From positions 5,492 to 69,491 of IMG/VR virus record IMGVR_UViG_3300043411_000715: a stretch of DNA of 64,000 bases. One strand, 5' to 3'. The translations under genes were made by a program, and so were the position numbers. The notes below the pieces were generated by a model. It did no database searches, had not been told where the DNA came from, and saw only the letters and a list, made by a program, of their open reading frames with translations. This document shows, piece after piece, positions 806 to 12,800 of the stretch. Within the stretch, counting starts at the first letter, position 1. Each line of letters opens with the position of its first letter. This DNA is from a virus.

Positions 806-1583
806 AGGCGCTGACGTTCCAGCTCCCGATCCGCGCTTGATCGACGCTCAGATCAAGAGCTTGGGTATTCAGGATCAGGCGATCCAGTACATGATCGACG
901 CATCGAAGGACATGGCGCCGCAACAGCGCCAGATGATGCAGGACTCGATCGACCGGTCGAAGGTGCTGTGGCAGCAGTCGCAGGAAGACCGCGAGTTCGC
1001 GCTGGGCAAGCGGGCGCAACTGGCGGGCATCCAGAACGCCATCGTGCGAGACGCCAATTCGTTCAACACCGAGGATCGGCGCGCCGAGCTGGCCGGCGAG
1101 GCCATGGGCGACGTGAACCAGGCGTTTGCCAATGCGCGCGGCCAGAGCCAGCGCGAAATGGCGCGCATGGGCGTGAACCCGAACGATGGCCGACAGGCGG
1201 CGATGAGCGGCCAGATGGCGGCCCAGCAGGCGCTGGGGCTGGCCACGGCCGGCAACAAGGCCCGTGTGCAGGCGCGCCAGGAGGGCTACCAGCTCACCGA
1301 CCGGGCCAACAACGTCTTGGCAGGCTACCCGTCGATGTCGGCCAGTTCGGTCGGGGTGGGTGCGGGCGTGGCCGGCATGGGGCAGCAGGCGCTGTCGCAG
1401 GGCCAGGCCGGCATTCTGGCCCCCAGTCAGGCGATTGTCAGCGGGGCCGGCGCAATGTCGGCCAATGCCGGCAACATCTGGGGCCAGCAGAACCAAGCCT
1501 ACCAGCAGGCGCAGCAGCAGGACGCGGCGGCTGGCGGCATGTTTGGCAGCGCCCTGGGGACCATCGGCATGATTGCGATGTGA
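798..1583 (+). CDS. Putative DNA ejection/internal virion protein
   Basis: MGKG..PAPDP N-terminus, Ala/Gln/Gly-rich helical sequence, Gly-rich hydrophobic C-terminus; position. Confidence 0.6.
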   Translation: MGKGADVPAPDPRLIDAQIKSLGIQDQAIQYMIDASKDMAPQQRQMMQDSIDRSKVLWQQSQEDREFALGKRAQLAGIQNAIVRDANSFNTEDRRAELAGEAMGDVNQAFANARGQSQREMARMGVNPNDGRQAAMSGQMAAQQALGLATAGNKARVQARQEGYQLTDRANNVLAGYPSMSASSVGVGAGVAGMGQQALSQGQAGILAPSQAIVSGAGAMSANAGNIWGQQNQAYQQAQQQDAAAGGMFGSALGTIGMIAM

Positions 1584-1584
1584 A

Positions 1585-2328
1585 ATGACGGCTCTTGAAA
1601 CAGCCGCCGAGGCATTCAACCGTCACACCCGAATCGCCTTCCAGTTCTCTGGTGGGCGCGATTCCACCGCTGCCCTGCACGTGCTGCGCCCGCTGTGGGA
1701 CAAGATGGCGATCTACACCCTGAACACGGGGGATGCGTGGCCTGAAACGCTTGGCGTCACGGCCGCCATGGAACAACTGGTTGGCCGGCCGTTCACGGTC
1801 ATCCGAAGCGACGCACCGACGTACTGGCGGGTCATGGGGAACCCCTCCGACGTGGTGCCGACCGGGCGCACGCCCATGGGTTTGCTGGTGAAGGATGGCG
1901 AGCCCATTTCTGATCGCTTTGCCTGCTGCACGGCCAACATCATGCGCCCGATGCACGAGCGCATGGCGGCGGACGGCATCACCCTGATCGTGCGCGGCAC
2001 GCGGGCGGCGGACTACGTGGTTCCTCCGGTGCTCTCGGGTGAGCGCGACGATCAATTCGAGTACCTGTACCCGATCGAAGACTGGTCGGATGCGCAGGTG
2101 GCCGAGTACATCGAGCATCACCAGCTTCCGGTGTCGCCGGTCTACGCCGCTGGCGCGCCGCACGGCAGCGACTGCCTGCACTGCACGGCCTGGTGGGACG
2201 ACGGCCGCCTGCCGTACCTGCGCGAGCACTACCCGGTGGCGTTTCAGCGGTTCGAGCGCCATGTTGCGCGCGTGCATGACGCGATCACCGAGCAATTCAA
2301 GCCACTGACCGAGGGGGCCAACTCATGA
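1585..2328 (+). CDS. PAPS-reductase-family protein
   Basis: PP-loop 'QFSGGRDS', 'NTG', 'CC', 'YPIEDWSDAQV..YI', 'DCLHC'. Confidence 0.85.
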   Translation: MTALETAAEAFNRHTRIAFQFSGGRDSTAALHVLRPLWDKMAIYTLNTGDAWPETLGVTAAMEQLVGRPFTVIRSDAPTYWRVMGNPSDVVPTGRTPMGLLVKDGEPISDRFACCTANIMRPMHERMAADGITLIVRGTRAADYVVPPVLSGERDDQFEYLYPIEDWSDAQVAEYIEHHQLPVSPVYAAGAPHGSDCLHCTAWWDDGRLPYLREHYPVAFQRFERHVARVHDAITEQFKPLTEGANS

Positions 2329-3797
2329 GTAGAGGTTTCAACAGCAATTTCCTTGCCGGCCTGGTGTCTGGCGGCCTGGGCACGTACCTGAAAATGAAGG
2401 ACGTGGAACGAGCCGACGCACGCGAGAAGCGCGAGCAGGAGGCGGCTGAATACCTGGCAGAGCAGCGTGGACGCGAGCGCACGCGCCAGCGAAACATCGA
2501 CGCGGCGATGGATGACTATGCGGCGATGGAGGGCTCGGGGCAGGTTCTGGACAAGAACGCCAGCGGGTTCTCGCCGTCGCAGGTGACGCAGCTCATGGGC
2601 CAAGGCGGACAGGCCGCGGTAGACGCCGAGGCCACCAAGATCGCCGATGCCGAGATGGCGGCCGGCGGCCCGCCCAGCAAGGTGTCGTCGATGATCCCGA
2701 ACTTTGCCGATCCGGGCGGCGCTCCGGCGCAGGGCGCGCCCACGGTGGCCATGCGCGACGCCACCAACGCGGACCGCATCGGCGGCCTGCAGCGCATTGC
2801 CCTGGCCTCGCGCGATGCCGGCGCCATCGAGCGCCTGGGGCAGGCGAGGATGCAAGCCAAGTACGGGCAGGAGGACATGGCCGCCGCCGCTGCCGTGATG
2901 AAAGACCCGACGGGACCGCAGGCGCAGGCGCTGGTCGGCCTGGTCAAGCAAAGCGTGCCGGGCGCCAGCCTGGACTTCGACAATACGACCGGCAACTTTG
3001 TCGGCTCGATCGGCAACAAGGCGGTGAATCTGTCGCCGGCCCAGCTTGGGCAACTGGCCGTGGCGCAGAACCAGTTCAGCCGCGCCGATCCGGCCGCGCT
3101 GCAAACCATCGCCGGGATCGACAAGGACTTGGCCGGCGCGGCTGCCGGGGCTTGGCAAACGCAGCTCAAGATGGCTGAGTTCGGGCAAAAGCAGAAGTAC
3201 CAGGGCGCGCAGATCACGCACATGCAGAACCAGGACGCGAACCAGGCGCTGACCGCTGGCGCGAATGCCGTGCACATGCAGCAGCAAACCGCCGACTTGC
3301 AGCGCAAGGCGGCCACGGAAGCCGAAACCCGCGGTGTGGTGGAGCGGCTGTACAAGGCCAAGAACCCGAACGCGAGCGACGACGAGGTAAAGGCGGCCGG
3401 CCTGCGCGTGATGGATGGCCTGGTGGACAAGAACGCGCCGGCCGAGGTGAAGTTGGCCAGCGCCATGGTGAAGTTCGGTGTTGCCCCCGACATGAAAACG
3501 GCGCTGGAGCGCTCCATGTCGAGCAAGGAAGCATCGCCCGACAAGCTGCGCGCCGATGTCTACAAGGCAGCGCTCACGGCCAATTTTGGCGACGCCAAGA
3601 AAGCGGAGGCGGTCGCCGATCAATTCATGGCGTACATGGCCCAGTTCGGCAAGCCGAGCACGTCCAACCCGCAAGCCGTCACGCCATCCAGCGTCACTGG
3701 CAGACGAACCGGGCCGACCGCCGGCGCCGTGGTGAGCGGATTCCGCTTCAAGGGCGGCAATCCGAATGACAAGGCCAACTGGGAACCTGCGAAGTAA
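2325..3797 (+). CDS. Putative ejection/internal virion protein
   Basis: 490-aa Ala/Gln-rich ORF with C-terminal 'GFRFKGGNPNDKANWEP' motif, directly before the giant gene. Confidence 0.6.
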   Translation: MSRGFNSNFLAGLVSGGLGTYLKMKDVERADAREKREQEAAEYLAEQRGRERTRQRNIDAAMDDYAAMEGSGQVLDKNASGFSPSQVTQLMGQGGQAAVDAEATKIADAEMAAGGPPSKVSSMIPNFADPGGAPAQGAPTVAMRDATNADRIGGLQRIALASRDAGAIERLGQARMQAKYGQEDMAAAAAVMKDPTGPQAQALVGLVKQSVPGASLDFDNTTGNFVGSIGNKAVNLSPAQLGQLAVAQNQFSRADPAALQTIAGIDKDLAGAAAGAWQTQLKMAEFGQKQKYQGAQITHMQNQDANQALTAGANAVHMQQQTADLQRKAATEAETRGVVERLYKAKNPNASDDEVKAAGLRVMDGLVDKNAPAEVKLASAMVKFGVAPDMKTALERSMSSKEASPDKLRADVYKAALTANFGDAKKAEAVADQFMAYMAQFGKPSTSNPQAVTPSSVTGRRTGPTAGAVVSGFRFKGGNPNDKANWEPAK

Positions 3798-3803
3798 AGG
3801 CGC

Positions 3804-6800
3804 GTGGACATGACCAACCCCTGGGAACAAGACTGGAGCGGCGCCGCGCCGCAGGCGAACGACAAAGCCCCTTGGGAGCAGGATTGGGGCAAGCCGTCCG
3901 ATGTGACCAAAGGCGGCGTGCTGGATACCGTGCGCGACTACACCCTGGCGGGCCTGAGCAAGGCGGGCCAAGGCAGTATGCAGGCGATCGCCGGCATGGC
4001 CGATACCGTGTCGGCGCCGGTGGCCAAGACGCGCGCCATGCTGACGGGCGCGGCGGCGCTGGCCGATCGCTGGCTCCCGGGCGACATCAACCCAACGTTG
4101 CAGGAGTTGGCGCAGGATGACGCCGCCGCGGCCGAGGCCAAGGCCCAGCAGAACGCCCTGAACAACCCGCTGGCGCGTGGGACGATGGCGTTGCGCGACG
4201 CCGCGCGCGAGCGCGGTCAGATGCTTCAGGACTTCGACAAGGAGTTCAACCCGGAGTTGGTGCGCCAGGAAGGGGAGATGTCCAAGGCGCAGGGCTTTTG
4301 GGAGAACGCCAAGGCCATCAAGGACAACCCGCTGGCGTTCTATGGCAACCTGATGCAATCGGCCCCTGCCATGGCGACCGGCATCGGGATGAGCAGCGGG
4401 GCCGCGCGCGCTGCTGGCGCGCTCGGCAAGGTTGCCGGCATGAGCGACGAGGCCGCGCTGGCGCTGGCCACGCGCAGCGCTGGCGCTGTCGGCACAGCTT
4501 CGGAGGCGGCGCTGTCTGGCAGTCAGGCGCGCGAGGGCATCCGATCCAACATCCTTGCAACGCCACATGCGCAGCTTGCCGAAAATTCGCCGCGCTATCA
4601 GGAGTTGATGTCGCAACCCGGCATGACGCCAGCGCTGGCGCGCGACACGCTGGCCAACGAGGTGAGCACGTCGGCGTCCTTGCTGACATCGGCGGCAACC
4701 GCGCTGGGATCGACTGTCACCAACCGGGTGTTCGGCAACCTGGAAGCGCAAATGATCGCCGGCAACAAGTTGGGCGCCAAGGACGCGCTGCTCAAGATGC
4801 CGGCCAAGGAAACGGCCGAGGAATCCGCCCAGGGGATGGGCGAGGACTATGTGCAGCATCGGGCGATGTTGCCGGCCGACAAGACCAACGCCTACGACCC
4901 GGGTGGCTCGTTTGTGCAGAACGCTGCGGCCGGCCTGGCCATGTCCGGGCCTGGGTCGGTGGGCGGCTACGCGCGCCAGCAGTACAACGCCTCGCGCGGG
5001 CTGAACCCGGACGGAACCAAGCCGGCGACCCCGCCTGCCGCGCCGCCGGCCGACGTGGCCATGGACATTCGATTCCCTGATGGCACGGTATCCAAAGACC
5101 CCGCTGGCGGCGCGTTCGACTACGCCAGGTATGACCAGTACCGCACAGCGCTGGAATCTGGCGGCCGGGCCGATGCCAAGAACCCGAACAGCTCGGCCAC
5201 CGGCCTGCACCAGTTCACCGAGGGCACGTGGCTGGCGATGGTCGAAAAAGCCAAGCCGGCCTGGGCCGAAGGCCTGAGCCGCGACCAAATTTTGGCCGCG
5301 CGTACCGATGCTGGCAAGTCCACCGAAATGGTGCGCGTGCTGGACAGCGAGAATTCCGCGCGCCTGCGGGCGGCCGGGCAGCCGGTGAACGAGCACACCC
5401 TGTACGCGGCGCACCACTTCGGCTCCGGCCGGGCCATCGACTTTGCCAAGGCGGGCGACGACGCGTTGATGAGCAACATCTTGTCGCCGTCGCAGATGCG
5501 GGCGAACCCGTACCTGGAAGGTCTGACCAAGGCGCAGGCGATTGCCAACTGGGACAGCCGCGCGGGCGGCGCGGCGCCCGCGGCAAGCCCAGCGACAAAG
5601 CCGGCGGCCGAAAGCGACATCGCCAGCACCGAAACCGACGCCGCGGCCGAGGCCCTACAGCCGCGCGAGGCCGCGGACGTGGACAAGGTGTCCGCGCTGG
5701 ACAAGCAGGCCCAGGCGCTGCAAAGCCGCTGGAACGACCTGAACAAGCCCGAGTACGGCCCCGCCTTCGACACCGAGCGGGCCGATTTGCAAAGCCAGAT
5801 CGCGGCGCTGCGCGGCGAGCGTGACCAGCTGGCCCGCGACTGGCCCAAACCCGAGTACGGCCACCCCACCAGCTTCGCCACCGAATCCGGCGTGCGGCTG
5901 GATGGCCGCTATGCGCTCGTGGATGCCGATGCGCTGGTGACCAGCCACAACTCGCTGCTGAACAAGAACGGCGCCTACCCGCAGGAGCTGCAGCCGCGCG
6001 AGCGTGACCGCGCCGCCAGCGAAGCGCAGATTTCGGGCATCGTCAACAAACTTGACCCGGCCCGCCTGGGCATGAGTGCGGATGCCGCCACTGGCGCGCC
6101 GATCATCGGCGCCGACGGCGTGGTGGAGTCGGGCAACGCCCGCACGATCGCCCTGATGCGCGCCTACGAGGCCAACGGCCAGAAGGCGGCCGAGTACCGC
6201 CAGTTCCTGAGCGACAACGCCAACCAGTTCGGCCTGAGCGCTGAGCAGGTGGGGGCGCTGAAGAACCCGGTGCTGGTGCGCGTGCGCGACACACCCGTGG
6301 ATCGTGCCGAGTTCGCGCGCCAGGCCAACGCCAGCACGGTGGCCGCCATGTCGCCGTCGGAGCAGGCGCGCTCGGACGCGCAGCGCATCGACAACATGGA
6401 GGACTTGACGCCCAACGACGATGGCGACTTTGCCACCTCGCGCGACTTCATCCGCCGCTTCATGGCGCGCCTGCCGATGACCGAGCAGGCCGGCATGGTG
6501 GATTCGTCGGGCGCGCTGTCCACGGCGGGCTACGCGCGCGTGCGCAATGCCGTTCTGGCCAAGGCCTACGGCGATTCGCCGGTGTTGCAGCGCCTGACCG
6601 AAAGCATGGACGACAACCTGCGCAACATCAGCAAGGCGCTGGTGATGGCGGCGCCCGAGGTGGCAAAAATGCGCAGCGCGATCGACGCGGGCGCGCGCTT
6701 CGACGTGGACATCACCCCTGACCTGATGGCTGCCGTGACCGAGCTGTCGCGCCTGAAAGACGCCGGCACCAGCGTGCAGGACGCCATCGCGCAGGTCGGC

Positions 6801-9800
6801 ATGTTCGGCGAATACTCGACCGAGGTCCGCGATCTGCTGCAATTCCTGGCCGACAACATCCGCCGGCCGCGGCGCATTGCCGATTTCGTGCGCGCCTACT
6901 ATGCTGCGCTGGATCAGGCCGGCGACCCCAACCAAGGCTCGCTCCTGGGCGAGAAGCAGCCGCCCGCCAAGGGCGATCTGATGACTGCCGCGCGCCAGGA
7001 CGCGCAAGGAGAACTGCTCGATGGCAATCCCGCAACCGCAACCCGATCCGCAGCAGATGCAGCGGGCGATCAAGGCCGTGCGCAAGCTGGCCCTGAAGGT
7101 CGAGTCCAGCGCCCGGATGAAGCGCGCCGTGGCCATGGCGATCAAGTCGATGGGCCTGCCCGATCCGAAGCCGCAGTAGACAAGCAGCCGTCGCCGACCG
7201 GTCAATGGCGCACCTTCCCGCCCGACATGGGCAGCCTGGGCATTCCGCGCGCCGAGATGCCGCAGATCAAGGGCGAGCATCGGGGAGCATTCATCCAGTT
7301 CCTGAAGGGCCGCGGCATCGAGGCCAGCGAGCAGCACGAGGTTGACGCTGCCAAACTCAAGCCGACGCAGGCCGAGTTCTCCATGGCCAAGGTCGAGGGG
7401 TTCCTGAAGAAGGGGCTCGGATCGGGTCGCTCCGTTCTGGTGTCGTCCGATGGCTACGTGCTGGACGGACACCACCAGTGGATGGCGCACGCCGTCGCCA
7501 ACCAGGACATCCCGGTCATCACCCTGAACGCGCCGATGCGTGAGCTGCTGGCGGTGGCGCACGAGTTCCCGAGTGTGCAGCGCAGCGAAGGCGCGGCCAA
7601 CGACCCGAACGCCAGCCGGCGCGAAGCGGTGCAGGACTTCAAGGCCGCCATGGCCGATCTGGCCGACATCGCCACCAAGTGGCAGCGCGCGGCCCTGGTG
7701 CCCGAGAAGGACGCCGATCTGATGCCAGTGCTGGCGCGGCTGTTCGATGCCGCCATCCGCATCGTGGGCACCGATCTGAAGGCGGCCACGCGCTGGGTGA
7801 AGGACCAGCTGCGCGCGAACCCGGCAACCAAGAAGCTGGTCAACAAGGTCGAGCCGATGAGCTTTCGCAAGGCGGCCGAGCAGGCGCTGGAGGCCATGAG
7901 CGAGCCACCGGCCCAGGGCGGGCTGTTCGACAGCCCGGAGCAGGCCAGCGAGGCGGTGCAGGGCGACATGTTCGGTCTGCCCGAGGCGCGGCCCTATGCG
8001 CAGTTGAGCGCGGACGAAAAGGCGGCGTTTGATCGGCGGCAGGGCATTCGAGCGTCGGATCGTGGGCGCGTCAGCGCGGCGAACTACGACACGGCGCGCG
8101 ACAACTACAGCCCGCCGGCGGTCGAATCGTTCATGCCCAAGGAGGCGCTGGCGGCGGCCGACAAGGTGATTGCCGAGCATCAGCCGGAAAAACGAAATGA
8201 TGCAGCGCCTGCGCTTAGTGTCGAAGATCGCGCACGCGCCGAGTCTTTGCTGGCACCGGTTCTGGCGAAGGCGGCCGAAGCGAAGGCTGAGTTCGATCAG
8301 AAAGTGATCGACATCGCCCAGCGCGTCGGAGCGCTGGGGCAGCAGTTGGCGCCTCTCAAGGGCCTGAAGCGCGGTGCCGAGAAGCTGGTCGAGGAAAAAT
8401 TCGACGTCGGTGGCATGAAGGACTTGCTGCGTTCGACGATCGTGGTGCGCAGCTACGCCGATGCCCAGGCCGTGGTGGATGCGATCGAGAGTGAGTTCAA
8501 GCTGCTGCGCGCGCCCAAGAACCGCACGGGCGACGTGCCGCTACGCGCCCAAGGCGAGGATGTGGCTCCAGAAGACCCGGCGAAGTACGCCGGCTACAGC
8601 GACATCATGGTCAACGTGGTGATGCCCAACGGCACGATCGCGGAAATCCAGATCAACACCCCCGACATGTTGGCCGCCAAGGGCGCGCAGGGGCACAAGC
8701 TATATGAGGTGCTTCGCGCTGAACCGAAAGGTAGCGCGACGTTTGACGTGGTGAATGCGGCGAGCCTGGCGTTTTACGCCGAGGCGCGGGCTGCGGCGAG
8801 AAATTCCTCTTCGGTCATGCGAGACCAGTCGGCTGGCCAGAACCCGTTGGCGGGTTTGAGCCCTTCCCAGGGGGCTTTCTCGTCAAGCCAGAACCGCTTG
8901 CCGTCCGGGAACTCGACATACGACCGCTCGATGCCGTCGCCGTCGGCGCGATCCATGCCGAAAACGCAGCCGGGCGGGAATTTGTCAGGGACTTTCATGG
9001 GTTCCTCCGATGCCTCCATTGTACCCGGCCAGGGCGCGGGACGCAGCGCCACTAGTGCAGCCGCGCAACAAAGTCAAGCGCAAAATCGCGCCTCGCGCAA
9101 CAATTCGCAGAACGACCTGTTTGGAGCCCAAGATGCCAGTGCTGAAGGAAACCGTCCGCCGGGCGATGCAGGCGCAGGCGCCGCAGCTGTACCGGCAACT
9201 GGAGCGCAGCGGCAAGCTGGCCAGCTTCGTGAAGGAGCAGGCGGACGCGCTGAACGCGGAAATCCACGACGCGGTGATGCAGCGGATGATGGAGCCCGAC
9301 ATGCAGGCGCTGCCCGATCTGGAGCGGCCCAAGCGGGCCGCGGCGCTGGATCAGGCGCACACCGAAATCGCGCTCGCGCAGATGGCGTTCCCGTCAGCCG
9401 AGACATCCCCGCCAAGTCCGGGCGAAACTACAGCTTCTCAGGCCCCGACGACCTGAGCTACACCGGCTCGTGGGCGAAGAAGGCCGAGGCCAACGTCGCC
9501 GCCGTCGAGCTGCTGCGCGACCTCATCGCCGACAAGCGCCAGGCCACGCCCGATGAACAGGCCGTGCTGGCCAAGTTCGTCGGCTGGGGCGCGTCGGAGC
9601 TGGCCAACAACCTGTTCGGCGACAAGCTGAACGCTCCGGCCCAGGCGCTGCGCGAGTACGAATCAGCCAGCAAGGAAATGGACAAGCTGGGCCGTGGCTC
9701 GTTGTCCAAGGGCGGACAGTACCGCGGCCAATATGCCGACCCGGGCTATTACCAGGCGGTGGGCGTGTTGCGCGCGGCGGGCAAAGTCGCCCCGCACGAG

Positions 9801-12800
9801 TTCCCGCCGAGCGTGACGCGGGCGCAGTTGGACGCGGCCAAGCCGGACGCGGGCGTGCAACGCTGGATCGCCCTGCGCGATCGCCTGAAGGTGGCGATGA
9901 CGCCGACTGAGTGGAAGGAAGCCGCGCGCACCACGCAGTACGGCCACTACACCAGCAAGGCGGTGGTGCAGTCCATGTGGGCGGCCATGCAGCGCATGGG
10001 CTTCAAGGGCGGCGCGGTGCTGGAGCCGGGCGCCGGCATTGGCGTGTTCCCGGGCCTGATGCCGGCCGACGTGGCGGCCAATTCGACCTACACCGGCATC
10101 GAGTACGACACCTTCACCGGCAACGTGCTCAAGCAGCTGATGCCCGACGAGCGCATCGTCATCGACGGCTATCAGAACGTGGCGCTGCCCAAGGACTTCT
10201 ACGACGTGGCGATCGGCAACCCGCCGTTCGCCTCGATGTCGGTGCTGAACGACAACGAGTACAAGCGCAACGCCTTCAAGCTGCACGACTACTTCTTTGC
10301 CAAGACGATCGATCGCGTAAAGCCGGGCGGCCTGATGGCCTTCGTCACCAGCCGCTACACCATGGACAAGCTGGACGACAAGGCGCGGGCCTACCTGGCC
10401 GAGCGCGCCGATCTGGTGGGCGCCATCCGCATGCCGCAAACGGCGTTCAAGCAGAACGCGGGCACCGAGGTGGTCACCGACGTGCTGTTTCTGCGCAAGA
10501 AGGTGCCGGGCGAAGTCTTCGAGCACGCGCAGCCCTGGGCCAAGTCCACGCCGATGCAGGTGGACGGCGAGAGTTACCCGGTCAACGAGTATTTCCACGC
10601 GCACCCCGAGATGGTGTTGGGCACGCACAGCAGCCGGGGCAGCATGCGGGCGGCCAACGAATACACGGTGCTGCCGGGCGAGGGCGACATCGAAGCCGCT
10701 TTTGCCAAGGCTGCGGCCACCTTGCCGGCCGACGTGTACCGCGCCGAGATCGGCAGCGCCGCGCAGGCCGCGCAGGTGCGCGAGATCGACTTCAATCCGA
10801 CGGCGAAGAAGGAAGGCAACTTCTACGTCACCGACAAGGGCGTGCTGATGCAGCGCGAAGGCGGCGCCGGCCTGCGCGTCGAGGGCTTGAAGCCGGCCGA
10901 CGAGGCGATCGTGAAGGCCTATGTGCCCCTGCGCGACGCCGTGAAGCAGGCCCAGTATGACCAGCTCAATGGTGGGCCTTGGGAGCAGTCCCTGGCCGCG
11001 CTGCAGGCGGCCTACAAGGCGTTCACCGACAAGCACGGCCCGCTGTTGCAGGCCAAGGCCTACACCGTCACGACGACCGAAACCGACCCGGAAACCGGCG
11101 AGGCGGTGAAGGTCAAGGACACCCGCTATCGGCACCCGCTGGAGGCGTTGCTGCGCTCCGACCCGGACGCCTACCTGACGCTGGCGCTGGAGCGCTTCAA
11201 CGAGGAAACCGGCCAGATCACGACCACGGACGCGCTCACCAAGCGCGTGCTGGAGGCGCCTGTGCACGCGCGGGTCGAGACGGTGCACGACGCGCTGCTA
11301 ACCTCGCTCAATGACCTGGGGCGGGTGGACATCGCGGCCGTGGCCCATGCCGTCGGCCTGTCGCAGAAGGACGCGATCGAGGCCATGGGCACGGCGATCT
11401 ACCAAGACCCGAGCGCGGGCTGGCAGATGGCTGACGAATACCTGTCGGGCAACGTGAAGAAGAAGCTGGCCGAGGCGCGCGCCGCGGCGCAGTCGGACGC
11501 CCGCTACGAGCGCAACGTTGCCGCGCTGGAAGCGGCGCAGCCGGCCCCGAAGACCCCGGCCGACATCAACGTCGGGCTGGGCATGAACTGGGTTCCGGCG
11601 CCGTTCTACGAACAGTTCCTGCACGACCTGGCCGGCACGACCGTGAGGGTCAACTTCAACACGGCGACGCGCGAATGGTCGGTGGAGAAGGTCGATGGAC
11701 ACAAGACCCCGGCGGCCATTGCCGACTGGGGCACGGGTGACCGCGACATTGCCGATTTGCTGGTGCACGCGCTCAAGGGCACGCCGATCGACATCTCGCG
11801 CACCGAGATCGCCGACGGCAGCAAGAAGACCGTGAAGGATCACGCGGCCACCGAGGCCGCGAACGAAAAACTCAAGGCGCTGCGTGAGCGGTTTGAGGGC
11901 TGGGTGTGGGAGAACCCCGAGCGCTCGGACAAGCTGGTGCAGCTGTACAACGACAAGTTCAACACCACGGTGCCGCGCCGCTTCGACGGCCGCCATCTGA
12001 CGCTGCCGGGCACGACCAGCACGGTCACGGTGTTCGATCACGTCAAGCGCGGGGCCTGGCGCATCATCCAGTCGGGCAACACCTATCTGGCCCACGCCGT
12101 TGGATCGGGCAAGACCTGGCAAATGGTGATCAGCGCCATGGAGCAAAAGCGCCTGGGGCTGATCAAGAAGCCCATGTTCGTGGTGCCCAACCACATGCTG
12201 CAGCAGTTCGCGTCGGAGTGGATGCAGCTGTACCCGGCCGCGCGCCTGATGGTGGCCGACGAGGAGAACTTTCACACCAACAACCGCCGCCGCTTCGTGT
12301 CGCGCGTGGCGCTGTCCGACCTGGACGGGGTGATCATCACCCAGTCGGCATTCAAGATTCTTGACCTGGCCCCCGAGTTCAAGGCCAAGATCATCCAGGA
12401 GCAGCTTGACCAGCTGGAGGCCTCGCTGCACGATGCCGATCCGAGCCTCAAGCCGGGGCAGAAGTCGCGCGATCCGACGGTCAAGCAGATTCAGGCCAAG
12501 ATCGAGAAGCTGGAAACCCGGCTGCAGGCGGCCATGTCGAGCGAGGGCAAGGACAAGAACGTCATGTTCGACGAGCTGGGCGTGGACATGCTGTACGTCG
12601 ATGAGGCGCACGGCTACCGCAAGCTGGACTACGCCACCTCGCGCAAGGTCAAGGGCCTGAGCAGCGACGGCAGCGCCATGGCCTTGGACATGTACGCCAA
12701 GGTGCGCTACCTTGCCGAGAAGAACCCCAAGCGCAATCTGGTGATGGCCTCGGGAACGCCCATCACCAACACGATCGCCGAGCTGTACAGCCTGCAGCGC

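Follow-up and report, generated by a model that had tools for sequence, protein, structure and literature searches.

A candidate immunity gene nested antisense in a giant phage polyvalent-protein gene, directly after a Tas1-like RelA/SpoT domain

The stretch of DNA considered here, referred to as the window, comprises 64,000 nucleotides (nt) of the virus record IMGVR_UViG_3300043411_000715 (positions 5,492 to 69,491). It contains a giant open reading frame (ORF) of 5003 amino acids (aa) with a RelA/SpoT-like domain. Immediately after that domain a small ORF of 74 aa, here called anti74, runs on the opposite strand, inside the giant one. The question raised by this locus is whether the same nucleotides encode two proteins, and if so what the smaller one is for. 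We conclude, with a probability of roughly 0.7, that anti74 is a genuine antisense nested gene and most likely the cognate immunity protein of the Tas1-like domain. A first-pass annotation had already suggested a small inhibitor of the RelA/SpoT domain, and this part of the suggestion is supported by conservation, by selection, by the predicted fold and by a model that places the protein at the active site. The systems with which it was compared, the toxic small alarmone synthetases (toxSAS), are replaced here, as the closest relatives, by the polymorphic-toxin/immunity pairs of Tas1 and of MuF-Apk2/IapK.

The RelA/SpoT-like domain and its small partner

The nucleotidyltransferase motifs picked out by the first-pass annotation (K..KR.AEK, KDLLRSTIV, GYSDI and EIQI) are all located in the giant ORF between 8190 and 8771. 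The domain has a weak match to Pfam RelA_SpoT (E 2.9e-4, 21.5 bits, profile positions 9-108 of 113), and 10 of 13 aligned relatives match the same family at E<=0.01, the best with E 3.7e-6. When a profile of the 13 sequences is compared with solved chains, the closest relative is Tas1 of Pseudomonas aeruginosa (6ox6_A, E 9.7e-14, profile positions 20-157), followed by a putative GTP pyrophosphokinase (3l9d_A) at E 0.093. Residues K57, K65, D78, R81, G135, Y136, E152, Q154 and H169 (domain numbering) are invariant in the 13 sequences, and at least 90% of them keep R61 and D138. The domain thus has the catalytic motifs of the RelA/SpoT homologue (RSH) synthetase fold: the conserved basic patch, Asp/Arg, Gly-Tyr and Glu-x-Gln. 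These matches place it in the RSH synthetase fold, in a Tas1-like branch whose closest solved relative is a (p)ppApp-synthetase toxin.

We take the structure 6ox6 to be the Tas1 (p)ppApp-synthetase effector of P. aeruginosa together with its immunity protein. Tas1 is a toxic RelA/SpoT-type enzyme which is delivered by a type VI secretion system and is neutralised by a small cognate protein. By analogy with this closest relative, (p)ppApp synthesis is a more likely activity for the domain than the tRNA pyrophosphorylation that had been put forward as an alternative.

Relatives of anti74 were sought in several ways. A protein search returned 5 database proteins of 72-75 aa with 59-86% identity, and DNA scans gave 7 viral loci, 19 metagenomic loci and 4 loci in metagenome-assembled genomes (MAGs). 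Out of 1.84 billion cluster representatives, 83 match a profile of 40 anti74 sequences at E<=1e-3, and the majority are small proteins in which the match starts at residue 1. The anti74 hidden Markov model (HMM) is positive in 61 of 83 sources; 3 with another start codon were left out, and the remaining 58 reduce to 40 unique loci. No family in Pfam, PHROGs, PADLOC or NCBIfam matches anti74, tblastn against phage and plasmid record collections gave no match, and the ESM Atlas features gave no usable one. The profile also matches long repeat proteins many times (P0115 and others; for example 21 stretches in a protein of 1425 aa), which probably reflects an FPDGxxF-like repeat motif rather than homology.

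The stop codon of anti74 is 3 nt from the end of the domain (8771), and this closeness recurs in relatives. A search starting from the domain yielded 56 viral loci, and in 35 of these a relative of anti74 lies on the opposite strand directly after the domain; all 32 best domain matches carry one. The ORF is therefore conserved beside homologous RelA/SpoT domains, as it should be if the first-pass annotation was right. Starting instead from anti74, the domain is adjacent in 22 of 26 loci, and for 2 of the 4 exceptions there is no room for it on the contig. The small gene lies immediately beside the toxin domain and is inherited with it, as is seen in toxin-immunity pairs.

Three loci carry a stand-alone anti74, with neither an intact domain nor a giant ORF (L014, L024 and L085). 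In L014 (474-698), it is accompanied by only the 3' tail of the domain in an apparent phage regulatory region, with neighbours which, from reading their translations alone, are a Rha-like protein and an XRE-type helix-turn-helix protein. On the same basis, the neighbours in L024 (333-557) are AlpA-like and primase-like proteins. In L085 (3634-4401), from a Silanimonas MAG, a domain remnant, anti74 and a TnpV-like gene are present as ordinary separate genes. The stand-alone copies resemble orphan immunity genes, and the cassettes with a domain tail look as though they were made by recombination.

The product of anti74 had been described as globular in appearance. AlphaFold2, run with 13 sequences, gives a confident fold of five strands and a C-terminal helix (predicted local distance difference test, pLDDT, 87.3; predicted template modelling score, pTM, 0.76). 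A model of the domain together with anti74, which had been suggested as a check, gives an interaction prediction score from aligned errors (ipSAE) of 0.77 as the median of 3 runs, compared with 0.00 for the best of 3 controls. The mark set for this score is reached by 58 of 80 solved complexes and by 2 of 110 mismatched pairs, counts that hold only roughly here because the model was built from the analysis's own alignments. The runs share at least 62% of their contacts, and the pLDDT of the partner is at least 89. The modelled contacts on the domain are at residues 52-61, 64-65, 78, 81, 133, 136, 138 and 154, and this interface coincides with invariant or near-invariant catalytic columns of the domain alignment; the modelled contacts on anti74 include residues 40-43 and 56-61. 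The model places anti74 over the active site, in the catalytic cleft, and, as a prediction, supports binding.

The reality of the gene is well supported (see below), and its function is read from position and from the model. It might then be a real protein with a different task, such as an assembly or packaging chaperone of the giant protein, a regulator, or an accessory moron. Such a task would be in keeping with the lack of resemblance to any known immunity family, with a neighbour from the TnpV family, whose function is not established, and with the stand-alone copies in what seem to be regulatory or replication regions (L014, L024). However, anti74 stays directly behind the domain even in L005-L008, whose giant proteins are built differently further downstream. 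The modelled interface falls on the conserved catalytic cleft, the controls score 0.00, and in L014 and L085 nothing but the 3' end of the domain was retained alongside anti74, in the manner of orphan immunity cassettes. We consider it unlikely that anti74 is something other than an inhibitor, and cognate immunity is the preferred reading.

Which of the two frames is maintained

The coordinates first given for anti74 prove to be exact, with the minus-strand ATG at 8998-8996, the TAA at 8776-8774 and the 74-aa peptide as quoted; GGAGGA and TACAAT are likewise found where they had been placed, on the complement of 9003-9008 and 9018-9023 respectively. An open frame at this position is of no significance by itself, because the third positions of its codons are also third positions in the giant frame, the GC content is high (0.649 in the window), and chance ORFs of 541-1249 aa occur on the same minus strand. 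Under synonymous resampling given the giant protein, the probability that the antisense frame is open ranges from 0.04 to 0.81 per locus. The case for anti74 rests on the comparison with relatives. The variability of codon positions alone, and ORF openness alone, are too weak to separate the frames, and were replaced by a six-frame comparison and a test of substitution classes.

In the six-frame blastp comparison of 8 loci over the anti74 stretch, the antisense frame is the best in 27 of 28 pairs, with a summed score of 1860 compared with 1490 for the giant frame. Over the RelA domain, used as a control, the giant frame is the best in 28 of 28 pairs.

The substitution classes point the same way. 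In 40 close pairs, substitutions that are silent in anti74 and change the giant protein occur at 0.413 per site, close to the 0.456 for doubly silent substitutions, and those that change anti74 and are silent in the giant frame are depleted to 0.183 (all raw proportions). The control in the RelA region is the mirror image, 0.689 against 0.310. When each sequence is used only once, giving 16 independent pairs, the values are 0.452 and 0.279 (odds ratio 2.15, Fisher p 0.0034). Since changes to the giant protein that spare anti74 accumulate at about the doubly silent rate, these data indicate that the 74-aa protein is under purifying selection and that the giant-frame residues over it drift freely.

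anti74 also has expression signals of its own. A Shine-Dalgarno (SD) core is present in 38 of the 40 unique loci and ATG in all 40, loci with other start codons having been excluded from the set. A TAnnnT box stands 12-24 nt from the ATG in 39 of 40, extended to TGnTAnnnT in 28. The composite motif of box, SD and ATG ends exactly on the start codon in 36 of 40 loci, and does not occur again on the anti74 strand in 289,277 nt. The giant-frame residues read across the -10 box vary (IV, TV, SV, TL, IL) and are unconserved. In the window, a terminator-like hairpin with a T-rich tail (9098-9076, minus strand) lies between the two nested genes, upstream of the -10 box of anti74, and could shield anti74 against antisense read-through. 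Two open frames, purifying selection on the inner one and its own translation signals are the features of an embedded overlapping gene, and on this comparative evidence we regard anti74 as a real gene.

The alternative is that anti74 is a shadow ORF that makes no protein, conserved because of the giant-frame peptide or because of an antisense promoter or RNA regulating the giant gene. The shared wobble positions, the probabilities of openness and the chance minus-strand ORFs of up to 1249 aa all allow for this, and the contigs from RNA libraries are uninformative on strand or level. Against it, changes silent in anti74 run at the doubly silent rate in the giant frame and changes to anti74 are depleted, with the opposite in the control region; ATG, SD and -10 box are kept in 36-39 of 40 loci, the fold is confident and the gene persists where the giant ORF has gone. 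We therefore give this explanation very little credence.

Several observations weigh against anti74 as an immunity gene. With regard to relatives, the anti74 HMM is negative in 21 of the 56 domain loci, and the profile link between anti74 and other small antisense ORFs is weak (hhalign probability 35.7%). The anti74 loci are mutually related, so that the locus counts are not counts of independent events, and multiple hits are uncorrected in the substitution-class rates. With regard to expression, the promoter in the window is the weakest copy, with neither TGn nor a -35 element; the spacing from GGAGGA to ATG is only 4 nt; and a consensus promoter scan of 8400-9600 gave no promoter-like site. 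Contigs from 4 metatranscriptome runs cover 6000-12000 evenly and show neither strand nor level, and the libraries may contain DNA.

With regard to function, the match of the domain is below the Pfam RelA_SpoT gathering cut-off (27 bits), and its toxicity is assumed. The Atlas's own model of anti74 is poor (pTM 0.36), and the score of the complex could be partly owed to memory of solved RelA/SpoT toxin-immunity complexes. The 13-sequence profile of anti74 has no match among PDB chains at E<=1, and a Foldseek search with the predicted fold has none at E<=0.001 in PDB (best E 0.32) or in BFVD (best E 0.086). Having no likeness to any solved protein, in sequence or fold, anti74 cannot be tied to Tis1 or IapK, whose presence among the PDB chains was not checked by name. 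Finally, no Phage_integrase or rve transposase match was found in the 69.5-kb record, so that a role in protecting a lysogen, and a temperate lifestyle, are unsupported for this record.

The giant frame and a second nested gene

Table 1. Features of the locus, with positions in the window
Feature	Position	Strand	Evidence or remark
Giant polyvalent ORF, 5003 aa	3804-18815	+	DarB-like; phrog_10089 match, E 0 and 1.1e-150
Tas1-like RelA/SpoT nucleotidyltransferase domain of giant protein, 194 aa	8190-8771	+	Pfam, profile match to Tas1, conserved residues
anti74, candidate immunity gene, 74 aa + TAA	8774-8998	-	ORF, conservation, selection, fold, complex model
SD GGAGGA of anti74	9003-9008 (complement)	-	4 nt before ATG; SD core in 38/40 unique loci
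-10-like TACAAT of anti74	9018-9023 (complement)	-	TAnnnT in 39/40 unique loci, TGn before it in 28/40
Giant-frame linker, Ser/Gly/Ala-rich, through both nested genes	8772-9456	+	Open; near-neutral residues over anti74
'alt', probable TnpV-family gene, 107 aa + stop	9133-9456	+ (+1 frame of giant ORF)	Divergent from anti74
SD GGAG of TnpV-like gene	9123-9126	+	6 nt before ATG; SD-like core in 21/24 relatives

The locus is summarised in Table 1. The 69.5-kb virus record from which the window is taken has terminase, portal, virion protein and spanin genes, and its source is a phage. Sequence nearly identical to 8500-9600 of the window occurs in wastewater RNA-seq and metatranscriptome runs from 7 studies, so the phage or its close kin is common in wastewater; in all, 20 public sequencing runs contain the stretch.

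The giant ORF has two matches to the PHROG family 'DarB-like antirestriction'. Its modules include ddrB-ParB, the RelA/SpoT-like domain, an Eco57I-type methylase and an SNF2-type helicase, and its product belongs to the class of phage-type polyvalent proteins that Iyer et al. (2017; PMC5512222) characterised, with RelA/SpoT among the modules named. The 5003-aa protein contains no cysteine, and fragments of 1931-3580 aa from seven relatives contain 0-5. Two genes upstream of the giant ORF, and adjoining a virion structural protein gene, is a gene resembling 3'-phosphoadenosine-5'-phosphosulfate (PAPS) reductase (1573-2328, plus strand; phrog_424, E 2.4e-33).

Over anti74, the giant frame reads as a Ser-rich stretch, as the first-pass annotation had remarked, with 21.1% Ser compared with 5.5% in the whole giant protein. 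It reads through anti74 in 38 of the 40 unique loci. From the anti74 proteins and the codon usage of the region, one would expect 16.0 open giant frames among 37; all 37 are open. Across the TnpV-like gene, the giant frame is open in all 7 loci for which the probability of openness given the TnpV-like protein was computed (0.256, 0.051, 0.0003, 0.064, 0.0047, 0.034 and 0.004), and it is also open in loci with GC content down to 0.536. These figures suggest that what selection preserves in the giant frame here is only its continuity, the residues forming a Ser-rich linker that evolves neutrally. A giant ORF that is really two genes flanking an ordinary two-gene cassette, with the frame between them open by chance, can be imagined from the high GC content, which lowers the number of stop codons, and from relatives whose domain-bearing ORF stops 87-516 nt beyond the domain, but it is highly improbable in view of the 37 open frames where 16.0 are expected, the 7 of 7 over the TnpV-like gene at probabilities of 0.0003-0.256, and the read-through in 38 of 40 loci and at GC as low as 0.536.

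Of the 40 unique loci, 22 have the second nested gene, and in each of them it occupies the +1 frame of the giant ORF. A TATACT-like box precedes it in 11 of 24 relatives. Among 21 aligned relatives, 17 match Pfam TnpV (PF14198) at E<=1, the best with E 2.5e-7; the copy in the window has no match. A profile of the family finds 109 database proteins; among these 109 listed, 13 carry PF14198 and one is named 'TnpV protein' by NCBI. AlphaFold2 predicts a helical protein with pLDDT 81.8. The TnpV-like frame is more constrained than the giant frame (0.302 compared with 0.169 in 14 pairs), and in the control region the values favour the giant frame (0.503 against 0.252). These matches suggest that the second nested gene belongs to the TnpV family.

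The relatives with more divergent domains bear on how such nesting may have arisen. Most of the 21 domain loci in which the anti74 HMM is negative have another small gene in this position, antisense or convergent, and several of these small genes share a -10/SD layout like that of anti74. They form a graded series. The small gene is convergent and does not overlap in L075, L077 and L079; it overlaps the 3' end of the domain ORF in L070; it lies inside a C-terminal extension in L071-L073 and L076; and it lies inside a continuing giant ORF in L060, L062, L064-L066, L069, L074 and L078. In L070-L079, the small ORFs (about 2900-3300 in each locus) end in a helix with the motif Ser/Asp-x-x-x-Phe.

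From this series, ranging from non-overlapping to fully nested, we infer a fusion across a convergent immunity gene: the immunity gene was probably swallowed when a gene ending in the toxin domain fused with the genes downstream. More generally, giant polyvalent proteins may grow by reading through neighbouring genes on either strand, with the swallowed genes living on in the linker; in this locus these would be the antisense immunity gene, with a promoter of its own, and the TnpV gene in the +1 frame. We put this forward tentatively, at a little under even odds.

Known systems and implications

On the basis of these observations, we hypothesise that the pair works as follows. The giant protein would be made late and carried into the next host like P1 DarB, as its DarB likeness and the position of the gene suggest; virion carriage into the next host is established for P1 DarB itself. 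If the match to Tas1 is a guide, the RelA/SpoT domain would pyrophosphorylate adenine nucleotides, producing (p)ppApp and draining ATP. anti74 would be transcribed from its own short-leader -10/SD unit inside the giant ORF, and its product, as modelled, would cap the donor and acceptor nucleotide cleft, so that the domain would be kept inactive wherever the cassette is present, including the cell in which the giant protein is made. The giant frame would read the complement of anti74 as a disordered Ser-rich linker.

Taken singly, the elements of this arrangement are familiar: genes nested in other genes, a small immunity protein, and a toxin module of the RelA/SpoT type. What is new is the arrangement, together with the candidate immunity family itself. 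With Tas1, the likeness is that of the domain, for which it is the closest solved relative; the differences are that anti74 has no match to solved chains in sequence or fold, and that the immunity candidate of this locus runs antisense within the ORF that bears the toxin. toxSAS systems of type II consist of a small stand-alone toxin in an operon with its antitoxin. They too pair a RelA/SpoT-fold toxin with a small protein inhibitor, but here the toxin is a module of a 5003-aa ORF and the partner gene is antisense with its own -10 box and SD, which is not the type II toxin-antitoxin organisation.

With regard to gene layout, pore-forming colicin operons have an immunity gene antisense to the toxin transcript, with its own promoter, located between coding regions. 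The antisense orientation and separate promoter are shared with anti74, which, in contrast, is located inside a coding region. In lambda Rz/Rz1, Rz1 is wholly nested in the +1 frame of Rz on the same strand; this resembles the nesting of the TnpV-like gene, whereas anti74 runs on the opposite strand. In bacteria and phages, genuine cases of one protein-coding gene lying antisense within another are scarce and contested. We know of no nested antisense immunity gene, and our literature search turned up none that lies antisense within the ORF of its own toxin.

The nearest phage-borne parallel is MuF-Apk2. According to the part of the published account available to us (PMC12226406), these phage polymorphic toxins end in a RelA/SpoT-type (p)ppApp synthetase domain, the toxin gene is followed by two small immunity genes, IapK and Aph1, and IapK inhibits Apk2 by occluding the acceptor nucleotide site. 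The present locus is similar in having a phage-borne toxin, two small genes after the toxin part, and a modelled occlusion of the site by anti74 like that by IapK. It differs in that the giant ORF continues across both small genes, of which one is on the opposite strand, and in that the second gene is TnpV-like and not a hydrolase.

The polyvalent proteins of Iyer et al. (2017; PMC5512222) are of the same class as the giant protein, with DdrB-ParB, methylase, SNF2 and RelA/SpoT modules, and in that work's main text they are interpreted as being injected with the DNA. The difference is that the main text describes neither an immunity partner nor a nested gene; the words 'antisense', 'overlapping', 'TnpV' and 'linker' do not occur in it, and the supplement may list these architectures.

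The comparative evidence for anti74 is unusually clean for a gene of this type. Its promoter, SD and start codon are conserved, its substitution pattern is the reverse of that in a control region of the same giant gene, its fold is predicted with confidence, and it has stand-alone copies. It suggests a way in which an injected toxin module can be carried safely, with the antidote encoded in the same DNA. It also suggests that polyvalent proteins may be assembled by read-through fusion across intervening genes, and it shows that nested partners of this kind will be systematically missed by gene callers. The domain of 194 aa and its partner of 74 aa offer a compact pair for the inhibition of a (p)ppApp-type toxin, with a partner unlike the known immunity families.

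If polyvalent proteins do grow by reading through their neighbours, and anti74 is an immunity gene, one stretch of DNA would serve two genes, anti74 and the giant frame; with the antidote lying within the coding sequence of the toxin module, recombination could not separate the two. The 'disordered linkers' of polyvalent proteins would then hide functional genes that are discarded by annotation.

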